The position numbers were made by a program, and so were the translations under genes. This document shows positions 3,440-42,001 of a stretch of 64,000 bases of DNA, in pieces; the stretch's first letter is position 1, and the number at the start of each line of letters is the position of its first letter. Source of the DNA: Clostridia bacterium (GTDB lineage: Bacteria > Bacillota > Clostridia > JAAYHZ01); NCBI GenBank assembly GCA_050950825.1, contig JBMNIH010000002.1:1-64000 (forward strand). Reading direction: 5' to 3'. The notes beneath the pieces are model-generated. The model ran no database searches, had not been told where the DNA came from, and worked only from the letters and a program-made list of their open reading frames with translations.

Positions 3440-4303
3440 CTAGGATTCCTGTGCGGAACCGACCTTCAAAGCATCAATAAGGGGACTGACATCCGAATAA
3501 TATACGCGGTAGTCAACCACACTCATGCCATACTCTTTCAAAAGCTTTTTAACCAGATTTCGTATTAGATTCGCCCCTTGGTTCAATTCCACGTACATTT
3601 TACCGCCTATCAATTTTGCTCTTTTGGTCATATCATCCGGGTTACTGGAGAAATATTTTTTCGTCGCTCCGTTCATATGCGGTTTGTGTTCAAGGGTCAA
3701 GAACAATTTCTCATCCTTTTCAAATAAGTATTCGCATGTTTTCACCAGCATCTGCTGCCAAGTATCTACGCGGATGATGTTTTCCTCGATTTTGAAAGCA
3801 CAAGGCTTTTTATGTAAATAGTTTTCATACAACGAATGGCTTTCAATCTCTTCCTCTTTAACCGGATCCGGTATCCTTTTCGGCGAAATTAGACTCAAAT
3901 CCTTCAAAGGATTATTCGGACTGATCTTTTGAATAACGGGATAAGGCTTGCTCAAACCGTTCTCGGTATTCGCTTTATTGTTTGCATCCGAAACGTATTC
4001 GCTGCGTTGTATACCTTCTCCGTTAAGAACGTCGGCATCCTCCTCTTGATTCGATATGCTATTATTGTAAATTTTTAACAGGCCGTCGATAACTTTGATA
4101 TATTCTTCAATTTCCTCATTGATACCGATATAATAACGAAGCTTTTGAAAATCCTTCTCTTTGCGGTATCGGTCTACATAAGCCCAGAAAGCCTCTTGGG
4201 CTTCTCCCAGCGAACCTTTTAGCAGTTTGATATGCTCGACAATATGTAACGCTTTTTCCGGCACATCCGTAATAACTTGCTTAAATAACATGTCACAACC
4301 CAT
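3440..4303 (-). CDS. Hypothetical protein with putative SeqA-like C-terminal DNA-binding domain
   Basis: Helical N-terminus, low-complexity linker, then W..ML....EYL...NGATKKYFS....M...KLIGG.MYVELN...NLVKKLLKEYG, which resembles the SeqA C-domain pattern by eye. Confidence 0.55.
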   Translation of the reverse strand: MGCDMLFKQVITDVPEKALHIVEHIKLLKGSLGEAQEAFWAYVDRYRKEKDFQKLRYYIGINEEIEEYIKVIDGLLKIYNNSISNQEEDADVLNGEGIQRSEYVSDANNKANTENGLSKPYPVIQKISPNNPLKDLSLISPKRIPDPVKEEEIESHSLYENYLHKKPCAFKIEENIIRVDTWQQMLVKTCEYLFEKDEKLFLTLEHKPHMNGATKKYFSSNPDDMTKRAKLIGGKMYVELNQGANLIRNLVKKLLKEYGMSVVDYRVYYSDVSPLIDALKVGSAQES

Positions 4304-35895: not shown

Positions 35896-36774
35896 CTATT
35901 TGTTCAATAATGCTTTGGCGATCGGTGAATCGGGTCCTAATATAACGGTTTTACCGGAGCCTTCTAAAGAGGCTTTAAGAGCATCCAATGCCAGGATAAA
36001 CTCGTAGAATTCTTGTTTGTCTAATGTATTATAGGCTTCCGCTAACCGTCTCATGTATTCTTGCTCTCCTTCTGCAACTAAAACCGCAGCTTTGGCTTCG
36101 GCATTGGAGATAATAATATTTACTTGTTTGTCCGCATCGTTACGAATAATGGAGGATTCGTATTCTCCGTCGGCTAAATATTTATCGGCCATTTGCTTTC
36201 TTTCCGATATCATTCTTGCATATACGGCTTGTTCGTTTGTTGTCGGTAAATCGAATCTTTTAATTTTTACGTCAACAACTTCAATTCCATAATTAGGAAC
36301 CAAACCTTGAACAGTAGCGGTAATATCGTCGTAGAGCTTTTTCCTGCCGCCGATTTGATCCTCGGTGATAATTTGAGTCAATGAAACCGTACCCATTGTA
36401 TTCTTCAAGGTATTGTAAGTTAAGGCATCCAGACGTTGTTCCGCAATTGCTATACTGCCTAAGGAGCGGTAAAATAGCAGCGGATCTGTTATACGCCATA
36501 AAACATAACTGTCAATTGTCATGTTTTGCTTATCTGACGTCAGAACTTCCGAAGGTTGAATATCATAAACCATAACGGCTTTCGGGAATGACTTCACACC
36601 ATCGATGAAAGGAACTTTGAAGTGAAGACCTGCTTTGTCAGTTATATTAATAATTTTTGAAAATCTTACCGTTGCCATATATTCATTTTCGGCCACAATA
36701 TAGACCGAAGAAGATAGCAAAATTATAACAGCAAGACCGATGATAGAGATCAATAACACCTTTTTCTTATTCAT
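35896..36774 (-). CDS. hflC: FtsH modulator HflC
   Basis: SPFH domain; GIEVVDVKIKR.DLP, VY.RM.SER; paired with hflK. Confidence 0.9.
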   Translation of the reverse strand: MNKKKVLLISIIGLAVIILLSSSVYIVAENEYMATVRFSKIINITDKAGLHFKVPFIDGVKSFPKAVMVYDIQPSEVLTSDKQNMTIDSYVLWRITDPLLFYRSLGSIAIAEQRLDALTYNTLKNTMGTVSLTQIITEDQIGGRKKLYDDITATVQGLVPNYGIEVVDVKIKRFDLPTTNEQAVYARMISERKQMADKYLADGEYESSIIRNDADKQVNIIISNAEAKAAVLVAEGEQEYMRRLAEAYNTLDKQEFYEFILALDALKASLEGSGKTVILGPDSPIAKALLNK

Positions 36775-37832
36775 TATTCCGCACCTCCTGCCGTATTGTT
36801 TGAAAGAGACGAGCTTGCAGTATCGTCTTGTAAAGTACTTGCCGAATCATCGCCGATAAAGTTTTCTAAAGGCAACAGTTTTTGAACACCGCCTTCCGAC
36901 AAGTCGATATACAATTTGACTCCGGGTAAGACCTCGGTGATTACTTCATAATACATTCGTGACCGAGTAATTCCGGGATTCAGCTTGTATTCGGAATACA
37001 TGGCTTCAAACATGGCTACGTTTTCGATTGCCTGATTAATTCGTTTTTGTTTTAGATATTCGGCATTTTGGATTAAGCTGTCTGCTTTTGCATTGGCCGC
37101 AGGCAATCTGGAGTTTGCGTATGCTCTGGCTTGATTTATTAGAGTTTCGGCATTTTGCTTCGCAGTTTCCACCGATTTAAATGCTTCAATAACCTCAAGC
37201 GTAGGCGGTTCGCTGTCTTGGATCTTGACATCGGTTAACATAATCCCGATATCGTATGTCTCCAAGGTTTCGGTAACAAATTCTCGTACCATCCTTTGTA
37301 TCGCTTCCTTACCGTCGGTTAAGACCGCATCTACATTGGTTGAACCGACAACACTGCGCACTTGGCTTTGAACAAGGTTGCGCAAAATGTCTTCGGGATC
37401 ATACGATGCGAACAAATACTTGACAGGATCTTCGATTTTATATTCAATAAAGAACTCCACATTCACGATATTGTAGTCGCCTGTAATCATTTTACTTTCA
37501 TTATCAACAACCGTGTATCCTGAGGGCTTAGTAGGATCCGTACGATACCCCAATTCCATACGCTGAAATACATTGACTTCAACTTTATGCACCTTTTGTA
37601 TGCCAAAAGGCAATTTAAAATGCACACCGGCATCATTAACGGATGTTACCTTGCCAAAGGTTGTAATAACCGCTTGGTGTTTTTCGTCTACCGTGTACCA
37701 ACAGGTGGATGCAATCAGTAAAACAATAACGATTATCGCAGCGATCGTGAAATATTTCATGATTTTCTTTGCATCCGGTTTTACAGAGTTCCCTGTTTGT
37801 CCCGATGATCCGAAATTATTATAAAAACTCAT
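36774..37832 (-). CDS. hflK: FtsH modulator HflK
   Basis: MITGD.NIV.V, PP.EV.EAF..V..A, P.ITR.RMY.E. Confidence 0.9.
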   Translation of the reverse strand: MSFYNNFGSSGQTGNSVKPDAKKIMKYFTIAAIIVIVLLIASTCWYTVDEKHQAVITTFGKVTSVNDAGVHFKLPFGIQKVHKVEVNVFQRMELGYRTDPTKPSGYTVVDNESKMITGDYNIVNVEFFIEYKIEDPVKYLFASYDPEDILRNLVQSQVRSVVGSTNVDAVLTDGKEAIQRMVREFVTETLETYDIGIMLTDVKIQDSEPPTLEVIEAFKSVETAKQNAETLINQARAYANSRLPAANAKADSLIQNAEYLKQKRINQAIENVAMFEAMYSEYKLNPGITRSRMYYEVITEVLPGVKLYIDLSEGGVQKLLPLENFIGDDSASTLQDDTASSSLSNNTAGGAE

Positions 37833-37884
37833 CTTTGTCTAATACCTCCTATCATTTAACATTATATCTATCATATCACGGTTA

Positions 37885-37899
37885 AAGGACAGTTCTCAA
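37885..37899 (-). repeat. REP-like motif copy (1 mismatch)
   Basis: Minus strand TTGAGAACTGTCCTT. Confidence 0.6.
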
Positions 37900-37918
37900 C
37901 AAAAATATACCTTGACAT

Positions 37919-38740
37919 CAGTTCTCAAGATCCACTGTCTCAGATCTTTGCAAGAAGTTAGATCCCATCGTGGAGGCTTTTAGAACTCGTCCTCTGCAGT
38001 GCCACTATCCCTTTCTCATAGTGGATGCCATCTTTGTAAATGTGCGGGAAAATGGTCGCGTACAATCAAGTGGTTTGTTGATAGCCACTGCAGTGAATGA
38101 GGAAGGCTATCGCGAAATCATAGGGTTTCAATTAGCCAACAGTGAATCCGAAAGCAGCTGGGGTGAATTCTTTTCCTCTCTTAAAGAAAGAGGGCTAAAG
38201 AATGTTGATTTGGTTACCTCTGACGACCATAAAGGGTTGGTCAAAGCTGTTAGAAGGCACTTTCAAGGCGCTGGTTGGCAACGCTGTCAAACACACTTTT
38301 CCAAGAACATTTTGGATCATACACCGAAGGCGCTGCAACCTGAAATTAAAGAAGAGCTACGCCGGCTTTATGAGGCCGTTGACCTTGAGAGTGCTCGTAA
38401 CATCAGAGATGGGATAATCCAAAATTATGAAGCCAAGGCGCCGAAAGCCACGGCTATTCTGGACGAGGCATTTGACGATATCACTGCTGTTCTGGCCCTG
38501 CCCTTAAGGTATCGAAAACGGCTTCGTACTACAAATAGTGTGGAAAGACTCAACCAGGAAATTCGTCGTCGTGAACGGGTTATTCGAATCTTTCCCAATG
38601 CATCATCAGCCATACGGCTTATGGGTGCTTTATTAATGGAACAGCATGAAAAGTGGCAAACAGGACACAAATATTTCAATATGCAGTTGTATTACCAGAT
38701 GCGGAAAGAGAACGATTCGAAGTCCGGTACTGCTGCCTAA
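37919..38740 (+). pseudogene. IS256-family transposase, N-terminally truncated
   Basis: SRSTVSDLCKKLD, DAIFVNVR, SDDHKGL, WQRCQTHF, RTTNSVERLNQEIRRR; no start and the N-terminal third is missing. Confidence 0.88.
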
Positions 38741-38745
38741 GATCG

Positions 38746-38907
38746 CATTTATTCCACGGTCTGTTGACAACGAGCCTCTCATGGCATGTTTTCCGGCATC
38801 GGGGCCATCCCCCACAGTAACAGGGATGGGCTTCATAGAAGGTGGATGATGCCCGGCTATCAGCCTAACATGCCATGTAACTCATTGTCAACAGCTTTCG
38901 CGGCATA
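38746..38907 (-). other. Structured non-coding element, copy 1
   Basis: Nested inverted repeats 38761-74/38881-94, 38780-90/38867-77, 38793-800/38848-56; ends CATTTATTCCACGGT and CTTTCGCGGCATA. Confidence 0.75.
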
Positions 38908-39088
38908 GATAGCGTCAATATACATTCGGAAATAAAAAGAGAGAGTTCACCCTTATGATAAGATTAAATCTTGTCTGTATCATATATCATTTCCATCAAT
39001 TTTTCCACATTTGTTTTTTTAATTGATTATTACACATCACCTATTTAAGAATTCATGAAGACAATAGCAAATGCACAAGTAAAGTACT

Positions 39089-39252
39089 CATTTATTCCAC
39101 GGTTCGCTTTACGACGAGCCTCTGCCGGCATGTTTAGTGGCCTCTGCGGCATCTTCCTACAGGGTGAAGCCGGATACGGCTTTGTGTGTTTGATGCCAGG
39201 CAGACAAGCCTAACATGCCGTCTACTCATCGTAAAGCGACTTTCGCGGCATA
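39089..39252 (-). other. Structured non-coding element, copy 2
   Basis: Same terminal motifs as copy 1; stems 39104-18/39225-39, CGGCATGTT/AACATGCCG, GGCATC/GATGCC. Confidence 0.75.
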
Positions 39253-39297
39253 AAGCCTACCGTCACACGGTTACAAAGTCATAGCGGTTCAAGCTGC

Positions 39298-40434
39298 TTA
39301 TGCGTCCCAAGCCAGTGTGGTCATATTCTTTAGCCACTTCATACTGCTCCTTTCCAAACCATGTATGTGACGTCTGGTATCTTCCGCATACGTCCATTTT
39401 GAATGTCTTCTTCTCAGATCTCTTATCAATTCTTCTTGTGCTTCACGCCTTTCCTTTTGCTTTTTTCGTTGTTTTTGATATTTTAGCAAGTCAAGAATCT
39501 TACCGCCGTTTCTTTTGTACGCTCTGAGCCTTGCCATGCGGTCGCAACCCAATTCGCTCCATCCCATTGGTCTGCTGCTCATTCTTGCCGACAATACATG
39601 GCTTATTTGCCCTTCTATGCAATATGTCCAGCCGCTTGTTTCTTCCACTCGGGTTTTTATCCCTTGCCAATGATTTAGAAAATATCTTAACGCATCTTCC
39701 ACTTCTTGCTTCTTGTTTTCACTTTCCGTAACCTTCAGGATCTGCTCATAGATATTCTTCAATTCCTTTTTGTCCAAACGATTCAAGGCTCCCCAAATCC
39801 AGTCTTTCACCTCGTCCGCGCTATCGTAAAGATGCGCCACTGACCTGTTTATATATTTCATCATATGGTATTTATCAAGGACATATTTGCTGTTCTCCAA
39901 ATATTCGCATCCTTTTTTTATCCACGAAGCTCCGTCTCCGACTACGTATATTCTCTCAAGATAGTCCGTATCGTATGTTTTTTCTATGTATTCGGCAACC
40001 TCCATCCAAAGCTTTTCGTTGCCTTTGCCACCCTCGTAAATACCGCAAAAGTATTTTTTTCCGATCAGCTTATATCTGGGATTCTTGGATGCTTCCCCCG
40101 ATTCATTGATAATATCCTCGAATACACAAACAAGCTTAGGCATCAGGGTATTAATCTTATGGCCCCTCGCATCTCGCTTCAAATCGCCCTTTTCATTCCA
40201 AAACTGTGCCGCCACATGATCTTCATCGGCCATGACATGAAGCCTTTTTATCTTCTTCTTTCCTTCCGGTTCCGGCATCGGCATGTCCGCCTCAATCTCA
40301 TGTACCAGATCCATTACGGCTTGTTTGCTAATGCCTTCTTCCGCTTTTATGCTCGCATTCTCTCCGCCTTTGCGGTAACTGCTGTCTATACTTTCTTCTA
40401 AGGCTCTCGCAGCTGCGCCTAGCGTTACCTTCTG
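39298..40434 (-). pseudogene. ISLre2-family transposase, N-terminally truncated
   Basis: SYRK, ADEDHV, GDGASWI, LDKYH, EGQISHVLSARM..RPMGWS; the frame is cut near 40434. Confidence 0.85.
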
Positions 40435-40512
40435 GTCGCGGCATAAACGCTTGCGACCATAGGCTGATTGCTACATTTAAAATGCCGAGGTAATTTACAC
40501 ACTAATTTGGAC

Positions 40513-40541
40513 TTGACTTCAATAAACCATAATCATATAGT
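40513..40541 (+). promoter_or_regulatory. IS256-end hybrid sigma-A promoter
   Basis: TTGACT (IS end), 17 nt, TATAGT, upstream of the rhodanese gene. Confidence 0.6.
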
Positions 40542-40585
40542 CATATTAAATTTTAAGATAAATAGGGATTAATAGAGAGTTTGGC

Positions 40586-41035
40586 ATGACAAAGGGTATT
40601 ATAACGATTTCTTTATCGGTTTTGCTTGTATTTTTATTTTTCGGCTGCACGAGCAAAATCATTGACGAAGAGTCTTTCGACAAAACGAAAACGGTACATG
40701 AGACGAATGATACCGAAGAAAAAACGGAGTATGTCCGAATATCAAGCGAGGAAGCAAAACGAATGATGGAAGAGCCGGAGAGTTATATTATTCTTGATGT
40801 TCGAACAGAAGCCGAATTCTCGGAAGGACATATTAAAGGAGCCGTTCTTATTCCTCACGATAAAATCAAAGAGCATGCCGGTGATTTGCTTCCCGATAAA
40901 GATCAAATCATACTGATCTATTGCCGATCAGGCAACCGAAGTGCATATGCTTCTTTGGAGCTGATAGAATTAGGCTATAAAAATGTATATGATTTCGGTG
41001 GTATCATCGATTGGCCTTATGATATAGAAAAATAA
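40586..41035 (+). CDS. Rhodanese-like lipoprotein
   Basis: Lipobox FFGC; DVR..E..EGHI.GA, YCRSGNRS, GGI..W. Confidence 0.88.
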   Translation: MTKGIITISLSVLLVFLFFGCTSKIIDEESFDKTKTVHETNDTEEKTEYVRISSEEAKRMMEEPESYIILDVRTEAEFSEGHIKGAVLIPHDKIKEHAGDLLPDKDQIILIYCRSGNRSAYASLELIELGYKNVYDFGGIIDWPYDIEK

Positions 41036-41047
41036 CGGACAACTATA

Positions 41048-42001
41048 TCATAGATAATGGATTCTTTGCTTGATCTCACTTTTCCTCAGCAAATTTCTCA
41101 TAATTTCTTTGCATTTTGGCATGTTCATCATTTGAAATCCTTTTTTGTTTAGCCGTGCTATTTGCGACAAAGTCAGATTACCGATTATTTTACCGATTTC
41201 CTTGTATCCTAAGTTGCATAAGCATCGAATTAAGAAAACGGCAACGGCTTTTATAGGAGCAAGGCTTCGATCGTATTTCACCTTGATTAAATCCGTATCC
41301 GGTATGCCGAATTCTTCGGCAACGGTGTGCAAAACGGTTTCCGGATCCAAATCACGCTTGTATACGGTTCGTTCGCTGCGATACTCGTAGGCAGGTTTAT
41401 GTATAAATTCATCAATCCTTTCAAAAAGCTTTTGGTCGATTACAACTCTTCCAAGTCTCGACACGAATTCTACGTACCGCTTTAACGCCTCATCGGGCTT
41501 ATGATGAAACTTTGACAAAATGTATTCTTTATCGATCAGTCCGAATTCGTCTTCCTTTTGTCCGATGTATATGCCGTAAGAGGAAAACGGATAGTCCCGG
41601 ACACAATCACGATATCGTGATATGTCTTTCGGATTGTTATGAATGTACGCAGATACTACCAATTCATAACGCTCGTTCTCAATCACAACATTTTTATATC
41701 GGTCTTGAAACAAGGGACCTAAGCGTTTGTATTTCCGATTGTAGTACAGAACATAGCTTAAGTTGAGGCCTTGCATAAATTTGGACATGTCACAGCCTTG
41801 AGGATCAAAATGAATGTGCACGTGAGTGTCCATAAGACAATAAGCCAAAATTTTGCATTGGTATTTTCTTTGGTATTTTGCCATGCGTTTTAAATATTCT
41901 CTTTTGTCTTCATCGTCTCGGAACAATTTTATCTCGCTGATACTCCTGCACATAATGTGATGATTCGCTTCGGGATTTTTCTTTCGTGCCGTTCTTGCCA
42001 T
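41048..42001 (-). CDS. REP-associated tyrosine (Y1/HUH) transposase (RAYT) with C-terminal DnaA-C-like HTH
   Basis: MAR..R, LF.D.ED, AYCLM.THVH (HUH), YN.KY.R.G.LFQDRY, YIH.NP, Y.FSSY; helical C-terminus LGYKEIGKIIG. Confidence 0.85.
   Translation of the reverse strand: MARTARKKNPEANHHIMCRSISEIKLFRDDEDKREYLKRMAKYQRKYQCKILAYCLMDTHVHIHFDPQGCDMSKFMQGLNLSYVLYYNRKYKRLGPLFQDRYKNVVIENERYELVVSAYIHNNPKDISRYRDCVRDYPFSSYGIYIGQKEDEFGLIDKEYILSKFHHKPDEALKRYVEFVSRLGRVVIDQKLFERIDEFIHKPAYEYRSERTVYKRDLDPETVLHTVAEEFGIPDTDLIKVKYDRSLAPIKAVAVFLIRCLCNLGYKEIGKIIGNLTLSQIARLNKKGFQMMNMPKCKEIMRNLLRKSEIKQRIHYL

Follow-up and report, generated by a model that had tools for sequence, protein, structure and literature searches.

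Results

Two copies of a rod-like element beside unrelated transposase genes

The window analysed here is a 64,000-nt stretch of the genome of a Clostridia bacterium (positions 1-64000 of contig 2, in a genome of 3.55 Mb and 11 contigs). An initial annotation, made from the letters of this window, had described in it two diverged copies of a structured non-coding element of about 163 nt, each lying 3′ of an unrelated transposase gene. As argued below, each copy is probably a single-strand origin (sso) carried as an accessory module by an insertion sequence (IS).

Both copies are where the annotation had placed them, copy 1 at 38746-38907 and copy 2 at 39089-39252, and the reported distances to the neighbouring genes are correct. 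Indeed, the stop of an IS256-family open reading frame (ORF) lies at 38740, 5 nt ahead of copy 1, and a minus-strand ISLre2-family ORF ends at 39298, 45 nt past copy 2. The copies share 71% identity over 170 columns (BLAST), have identical ends (CATTTATTCCACGGT ... CTTTCGCGGCATA) and contain, in the alignment, all the internal blocks listed in the annotation. A small correction concerns the extent of the conserved stretch, which is slightly longer than had been noted and reads CG-CATTTATT ... GGCATA-AACGCT. Copy 2 is intact; copy 1 has lost its AACGCT tail because a partial ISLre2-family IS (IS-E, Table 1) inserted there, and the removal of these last 6 nt damaged the base of its stem.

Folding confirmed that each copy forms a rod on either strand. 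The z-scores of the RNA folds were -4.75 and -6.25 for the plus strand and -6.65 and -7.20 for the minus strand, with 0/200 shuffles as stable. The outer stem differs in sequence between the copies and keeps its pairing, in agreement with the compensatory changes proposed earlier, and the plus-strand C.A mismatch is replaced on the minus strand by G.U or G.T, so that the stem is uninterrupted there. A promoter and terminator scan called a terminator-like hairpin in the apex of copy 2 (39164-39185), which we take as part of the rod.

The module is related to the plasmid single-strand origins ssoA/palA

On the minus strand, both copies carry a box, TTATGCCGcGAAA, which is identical at 12 of 13 positions to the RSB of single-strand origins, published as 5′-TTATGCCGAGAAAATTT-3′ (PMC4598088). 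The minus-strand 5′ end reads ..GCGTTTATGCCGCGAAAG.. in alignment with the RSB, and in the folds the box sits at the base of the rod in both copies. According to PMC5703833, the RSB lies in palA/ssoA of pT181 and also occurs in ssoU, ssoT and ssoW, so that it marks sso generally and not ssoA alone; the same text describes ssoA as an element of about 160 nt that takes up its fold in the single-stranded state, receives its primer from RNA polymerase and is active in a single orientation.

A covariance model (R1), built from 10 sequences, all of this genome, was run unfiltered on pE194 and pT181. It found a single match per plasmid, at 3765-3935 of pT181 (37.4 bits, E 6.9e-10) and at 635-804 of pE194 (32.9 bits, E 1.3e-8), E-values that are rough because the calibration was shortened. 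Both matches span model positions 1-177 and contain the plasmid RSB, and the next best score was 10.2 bits.

The likeness extends to the architecture. Like the ssoA/palA of pT181 and pE194, the module is an imperfect-palindrome rod of about 160-170 nt in which a basal RSB box (TTATGCCG.GAAA) pairs with the opposite end, ..TGGAATAAA... When the two are read on the RSB strand, palA of pT181 shares with the module 5′ GC.TTTATGCCG.GAAA and 3′ TGGAATAAA.GC at the ends, a small side hairpin after ..TGTTAG.. and a length of about 160-170 nt. Folds with DNA parameters gave -41.5 to -44.4 kcal/mol for the modules, -36.5 for pE194 and -39.7 for pT181. The orientation dependence of ssoA (PMC5703833) also has a counterpart in the module, of which one strand folds better than the other. 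The two differ in their interior blocks, those of the module (GGCATGTTAGGCT and GGCATCA/TGATGCC) being specific to this clostridial group, and in their location, since the module is found in IS and serine-recombinase elements on chromosomes and ssoA/palA in plasmids.

Sequence comparison thus shows the module to be ssoA-like, that is, an RSB-bearing sso closest to palA and homologous to it in sequence and in architecture. The initial annotation, which did not recognise the element as a named family, has therefore to be revised on this point, as the R1 matches to pT181 and pE194 make it a relative of ssoA/palA. A search of Rfam with both strands of positions 36000-42000 of the window gave no match at E <= 1, the family being absent from that collection because it is a DNA element.

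The fold is conserved through compensatory change

Homologues were collected with a pattern scan for the exact ends of the module in one genome per species, which returned at least 111 stretches, almost all of them from Clostridia; 80 of these loci were examined. Together with 20 earlier loci they made up 100 sources, from which 97 matches (93 distinct) were aligned, only matches at E <= 1e-13 being kept to exclude those on the opposite strand. In the 93 distinct homologues, 40 of the 52 model pairs show changes on both sides, and 93.3% of cells are paired (shuffles, 72.1%; slid partners, 36-47%), in an alignment of related sequences that was fitted to the model and thereby favours structure. 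The observed values were reached by 0/500 shuffles. One-sided (wobble) changes are rare compared to double changes, and this scarcity of intermediates fits DNA pairing better than RNA pairing. Comparison of these homologues shows that the fold is strongly conserved through compensatory change, and hence that it has been under selection.

The ends are the most conserved part of the module, and in some homologues the interior is entirely replaceable. Six loci (L049, L055 and L057, which belong to one genome, G085, and L088, L041 and L044) keep both ends and the TTGAC stem around an interior hairpin that is wholly different, either AT-rich or unrelated, as if it were exchangeable.

Strand preference and promoter-like signals

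Of the two strands, the minus strand, suggested earlier as the functional one, is the better supported, by the RSB box, by the mismatches that become G.T and by the fold as single-stranded DNA (ssDNA). Indeed, for ssDNA of copy 2, the fold of the minus strand reaches -43.5 kcal/mol (z -7.07) and includes the basal RSB stem, and that of the plus strand reaches -36.0 kcal/mol (z -4.50) and does not include it. Within the model pairs, G.T counts are 154 for the plus strand and 112 for the minus strand, a single invariant pair giving 70 of the 154. The minus strand has G.T wherever the plus strand shows the basal A.C, which is conserved (in 62 and 90 sequences), or a C.A at one further position (35 sequences), and when these are added to the counts the minus strand is favoured.

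A promoter-like arrangement, TTGACA-N16-19-TAnnnT, occurs in 36 of the 93 distinct homologues. On the minus strand of copy 1, TG-n-TAGGCT is found 18 nt after TTGACA; it complements a conserved block, AGCCTAACATGCC, located at 38862-38874.

All copies of this genome lie inside insertion sequences

The genome contains 29 full-length copies of the module, in five sequence types (A, 6 copies; B, 4; C, 5; D, 1; E, 13), and the 13 type-E copies are 100% identical. All 29 lie inside multi-copy, near-identical IS repeats of 1.55-2.0 kb with IS256, IS3 or ISLre2 transposases (IS256-like, 10 copies; ISLre2-like, 14; IS3-like, 5), just after the transposase stop codon. Comparison of the flanks places them at fixed positions within five or six IS species. 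Types A and B belong to IS256-family elements of about 1.55-1.59 kb, in which the module comes right after the stop and the element ends 73-92 nt beyond it, and type C to an IS3-family element of about 1.9 kb. The carriers of types D and E are about 2.0 kb long and of the ISLre2 family; here the module lies at a distance of 132-183 nt from one end of the element and adjoins the transposase stop codon, on the strand opposite to the gene. In those IS256 and IS3 elements of the genome that lack the module, 54 and 25 nt, respectively, separate the stop codon from the end of the element, which marks the module as an added accessory segment.

Copy 1 is identical to 4 of the 6 type-A copies. One 160-nt DNA contig of sequencing run X5 (record 26) matches both ends of module A around a diverged interior of equal length (38790-38861); it is a B-type variant, and the community thus holds several module subtypes.

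The genome census also found families without the module: IS1182-like elements (13 and 7 copies), IS4-like (4), IS701-like (4), IS91 (4) and a group II intron (5). The genome is repeat-rich, the group II intron reverse transcriptase (5 copies) and the IS91 elements being accompanied by a tyrosine recombinase (4) and an rve + AAA_22 pair (3); examples of these repeats are C6:120722-122380, C7:241253-242878 and C3:222894-224330.

Carriers across Clostridia

R1 matched 15 of 100 other genomes of the class. The neighbours of these matches were IS256, ISLre2, IS110 (2 loci), IS630 (1), IS30 (1) and ISNCY transposases, or contig ends. For the 80 loci of the pattern scan, ORFs of at least 150 aa within 400 nt were clustered and the representatives named with Pfam and NCBIfam. 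A mobile-element gene adjoins the module in 50 of the 80. The most frequent is a large serine recombinase (20 loci), with the module 11-24 nt after the stop and on the same strand in 19 of them, followed by IS256 (17), IS3 (7), ISLre2 (3), IS30-like (2) and, in one locus each, ISNCY/DDE_Tnp_1, a Mob_Pre relaxase and IS6/IS66-like; these counts sum to 52 because one locus has both IS256 and IS3 and another both a serine recombinase and IS30-like. The other 30 loci have housekeeping neighbours or contig ends, the latter being the case for many of them. From these loci come most of the 42 singleton neighbour ORFs, which are mainly of housekeeping families, with one IstB_IS21 and one phage integrase.

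On the module tree, the carrier family changes 9 times, as compared to a mean of 27.8 in shuffles, none of which (0/200) was as low; the 41 rows without a carrier group were not counted. From this clustering it follows that the module is mostly inherited with its carrier, with an occasional carrier switch.

The serine recombinase genes have Resolvase, Recombinase and Zn_ribbon_recom domains, and their loci (including L065, L079, L082-L086, L093, L098, L105, L110, L114, L115, L119, L124, L135, L136 and L138) probably represent termini of larger elements of the integrative, conjugative or mobilisable kind. Exact-end matches were also seen in metagenome-derived genomes labelled Treponemataceae, Absconditabacterales and Sumerlaeota (L094, L127 and L134), where they could be due to horizontal transfer or to mis-binned contigs.

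Nested insertion sequences in the window

The features of the locus are collected in Table 1.

Table 1. Features of the nested insertion sequences and of the two modules, in window coordinates
Feature	Position	Strand	Basis or remark
IS256-family transposase gene, 3′ part; 5′-truncated IS (IS-A)	37920..38740	+	ORF 37970-38740
Copy 1, ssoA-like module, type A	38744..38907	- (functional strand taken as minus)	Alignment, folds, covariance model
TTGACA, -35-like hexamer of copy 1	38886..38891	-	Read from sequence
RSB-like box of copy 1, minus strand TATGCCGCGAAAG	38895..38907	-	Pattern TTATGCCGNGAAA
Target-site duplication, 9 bp, CGCGGCATA, left copy	38898..38907	.	Right copy 40437-40445
Partial ISLre2-family IS (IS-E), positions 2-1536 of about 1999	38908..40441	+	99.5% identical to full copies
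Copy 2, ssoA-like module, type E, core 39089-39252, intact	39087..39258	-	Alignment, RNA and ssDNA folds
Truncated transposase gene of IS-E, ISLre2 family (UPF0236), 338 aa	39298..40314	-	Pfam PF06782, E 6e-38
IS-A right end, positions 1471-1553, with right inverted repeat	40436..40518	+	100% match, 83 nt

The two copies are neighbours because IS-E inserted within the RSB box of the copy carried by the IS256-family element, producing a 9-bp duplication. Positions 37920-38907 correspond to positions 493-1480 of the full 1.55-kb IS-A and are 100% identical to its full copies, and IS-A positions 1471-1480 are present on both sides of IS-E. The IS-A ORF matches Pfam Transposase_mut (E 3.5e-82, profile positions 148-378) and the NCBIfam IS256 family (257.7 bits for a cut-off of 150). 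The left inverted repeat of IS-E starts at 38908 (GATAGCGTCAATA...); on the right, the element lacks 460 nt. Copy 2 sits 181 nt inside this element, with its RSB-like box at 39240-39252. The transposase of full IS-E copies has 516 aa; that of the window scores 188 bits against NCBIfam ISLre2, below the cut-off of 200, because it is truncated, and the full-length type-D homologue scores 254.5.

A preference of IS-E for sso as targets was considered and rejected: its other copies have unrelated 9-bp target duplications, so that its arrival in module A was a matter of chance.

The empty site is seen in a single contig of DNA run X5, in which 37917 is followed immediately by 40519 and the nested IS block 37918-40518 (2601 bp) is missing. 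IS-A is without its first 492 nt, flush with this 37917/40519 junction, and the left boundary of the insertion is therefore inside the IS. The 9-bp duplication (38898-38907 and 40436-40445) is intact on both sides although IS-E is without its right 460 nt; the joint of this deletion has a 6-nt overlap and looks like a microhomology deletion.

Discussion

We propose that each of the ~163-nt elements is an RSB-bearing sso, nearest to ssoA/palA, which forms an accessory module of the IS between the transposase stop and the terminal inverted repeat, and we give this reading a probability of about 0.72. By analogy with the plasmid origins, the function of the module would be the RNA-polymerase priming of second-strand synthesis on ssDNA. 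The minus (RSB) strand, when single-stranded, would fold into the rod; host RNA polymerase would bind the RSB/-35 region of the folded strand and make a short primer RNA; and DNA polymerase would extend this primer, so that ssDNA belonging to the IS, or to the replicon on which it resides, would become double-stranded.

A plasmid-type sso on a chromosomally integrated mobile element has been described in ICEBs1, an integrative conjugative element (ICE), where, according to PMC4595007, it supports second-strand synthesis after excision and after transfer. The 20 serine-recombinase loci among the 80 may represent the same situation, and for these elements and for the Mob_Pre neighbour, transfer or replication as ssDNA would be the usual rationale, again by analogy. 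For ICEs, which replicate by the rolling circle and are transferred by conjugation, a single-stranded stage is documented, whereas none is accepted for IS256, IS3 and ISLre2 elements, which lack both relaxase and oriT.

Several observations weigh against the identification of the module as a working sso. A hallmark of canonical ssoA is the CS-6 motif (TAGCGT/TAGCGA) of the terminal loop, where the primer RNA ends. It is present in pE194 (position 74) and pT181 (position 60) and absent from both window copies, and of the 93 distinct homologues 10 have it on the RSB strand and 4 on the opposite one; because it is missing, we name the module an ssoA-like subtype and not a canonical ssoA. A BLAST comparison of copy 1, set for distant matches, with 72,556 plasmids gave no match at E <= 1e-5, and the link with plasmid sso is accordingly drawn at the level of profile and motif. 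A strict consensus scan called no promoter within the modules, and a perfect -35/-10-like pair is confined to certain subtypes, the sequence in copy 2 being TTTACG. Furthermore, the orientation of the module relative to the transposase differs between families. The census of the genome found elements of the same families without the module (IS256, 7 copies; IS3, 6; ISLre2, 4; IS110, 3; IS30-like, 3), which makes it dispensable. The RSB strand shows no bias with respect to chromosome replication (G-rich strand, 13 copies; C-rich strand, 15; ambiguous, 1), and a role in this replication was rejected on the same orientations. Finally, no IS element is known to need an sso.

What could such an origin do for an IS? 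In copy-out-paste-in transposition, one IS strand is circularised and displaced while the donor is re-replicated. The sso might be a working part of this pathway, with RNA polymerase priming the second strand of the circle as it does on the strand displaced from a rolling-circle plasmid, although we consider this unlikely. The IS256, IS3, ISLre2, IS30 and IS110 carriers and one IstB/IS21 neighbour fit this idea, these families all being listed in a preprint as ones that form circular intermediates (bioRxiv 10.1101/2023.06.07.543989). There are two counter-examples, one IS630 neighbour and one IS6/IS66-like neighbour. In this genome the module occurs in such circle-forming families only, none of the 32 IS1182-like, IS4-like, IS701-like and IS91 copies having it, in numbers too small to make this a firm test. 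The enrichment in circle-forming families over background family frequencies is only suggestive, because independent acquisitions are few (about 9 changes on the tree). Alternatively, the sso may help the carrier replicon to become established after single-stranded entry into a cell.

A different explanation is that the module rides along passively. Illegitimate or RSB-mediated recombination would have brought an sso cassette from plasmids or conjugative elements into the IS, to which it is of no use and in which the gap between stop codon and inverted repeat would be the sole permissive spot. We hold this to be a serious possibility, if a rather unlikely one. The RSB is a known plasmid recombination site (PMC5703833), and the homologues that combine the same ends with a wholly different interior are as expected of cassette exchange via the ends; the module is found in either orientation relative to the transposase, and the same-family IS without it are likewise multi-copy in the same genome. 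However, its clustering by carrier family and the maintenance of motifs and of pairing through compensatory change point to selection in IS lineages rather than to decay, and the most successful IS of the genome, with 13 identical copies, is one that carries it. Action at the RNA level, in which the module would serve as a terminator, insulator or 3′ stabiliser hairpin in the 3′ untranslated region of the mRNA for the transposase or recombinase, with a likeness to sso that is only ancestral, seems very unlikely to us. In most loci the module does begin about 5-37 nt from the adjacent stop codon, and stable RNA rods form from both strands. RNA-library contigs cover the IS-A gene and the module and not the nearby 40618-41000, which is present in the DNA run, a weak indication, the sequencing-run evidence consisting of assembled contigs that show no transcript ends, strand or IS circles. 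Yet the strand in the mRNA would differ from carrier to carrier, plus behind IS256 and the serine recombinases and minus behind ISLre2 and IS3, and the unpaired motifs are nevertheless conserved in sequence. Moreover, no T-run follows the rod in the window copies, and one-sided G.U intermediates are rare among the compensatory changes.

The initial annotation had also envisaged a guide or regulatory RNA. Such an RNA of the IS might resemble bridge RNA, seekRNA or omega RNA, with its specificity encoded in the variable stem. A structured element of ~160 nt beside transposases, with a variable stem between conserved blocks, has the general appearance of such an RNA, but we find the idea highly improbable. 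With up to 2 mismatches, the variable stem matches neither the ends nor the flanks of IS-E and IS-C, and in IS-A it gives chance-like internal hits only; the variable part is moreover a fully paired stem and not a loop. The carriers (DDE, DEDD and serine recombinases) are mechanistically unrelated, the IS-E targets are unrelated 9-mers, and Rfam, as said above, returned nothing. Nor did support emerge for a non-autonomous mobile element: the 29 copies of this genome, to which the test for solo copies applies (elsewhere 30 of 80 loci are without an identified carrier), are all inside IS and have no target duplication of their own, the module flanks (CG on one side and AACGCT on the other) not being duplications. 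The same is true of an HUH substrate, as no module was found within 400 nt of the four IS91 (Y2_Tnp) copies. What stands of the earlier proposal is a conserved structured family on unrelated IS families, for which its ssDNA reading fits; the guide RNA, the non-autonomous element and the HUH substrate are the parts that do not.

Long hairpins are also known in repeats resembling miniature inverted-repeat transposable elements, such as BOX, RUP and Correia-type elements. The module shares with them ends that are imperfect inverted repeats (GCATTTATTCCACG as compared to the reverse complement GCGTTTATGCCGCG), a variable or replaceable interior and many copies per genome. It differs from them in having, in this genome, no solo copies and no target duplication of its own, and in a copy number that tracks the carrier IS. 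An IS5-family insertion near an sso alters plasmid host range (PMC12016507); this case was rejected as a parallel, since it is a different phenomenon.

Our literature search, outside which most subscription papers and ISfinder lay, found sso described in plasmids and ICEs, and none as an IS component. In rolling-circle plasmids such origins are textbook components, and their presence has been shown in a single ICE. An sso signals a DNA molecule that is single-stranded for a time and is then copied back to duplex. What appears to be new, as judged from the sequences compared here, is that the sso forms a regular module, inherited vertically, both in several IS families and in serine-recombinase elements across Clostridia, together with a distinct sso subtype without CS-6; the kind of element itself was already known.

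In conclusion, the presence of a covarying sso on IS suggests either that these IS have a single-stranded stage of their own, or that the module is a host-adapted priming site. In the first case, the second-strand step of copy-out-paste-in transposition would become directly testable. In the second, the module would help any carrier replicon to establish after conjugative transfer. In addition, the covariance model lets annotators recognise these elements rather than label them as novel RNAs.

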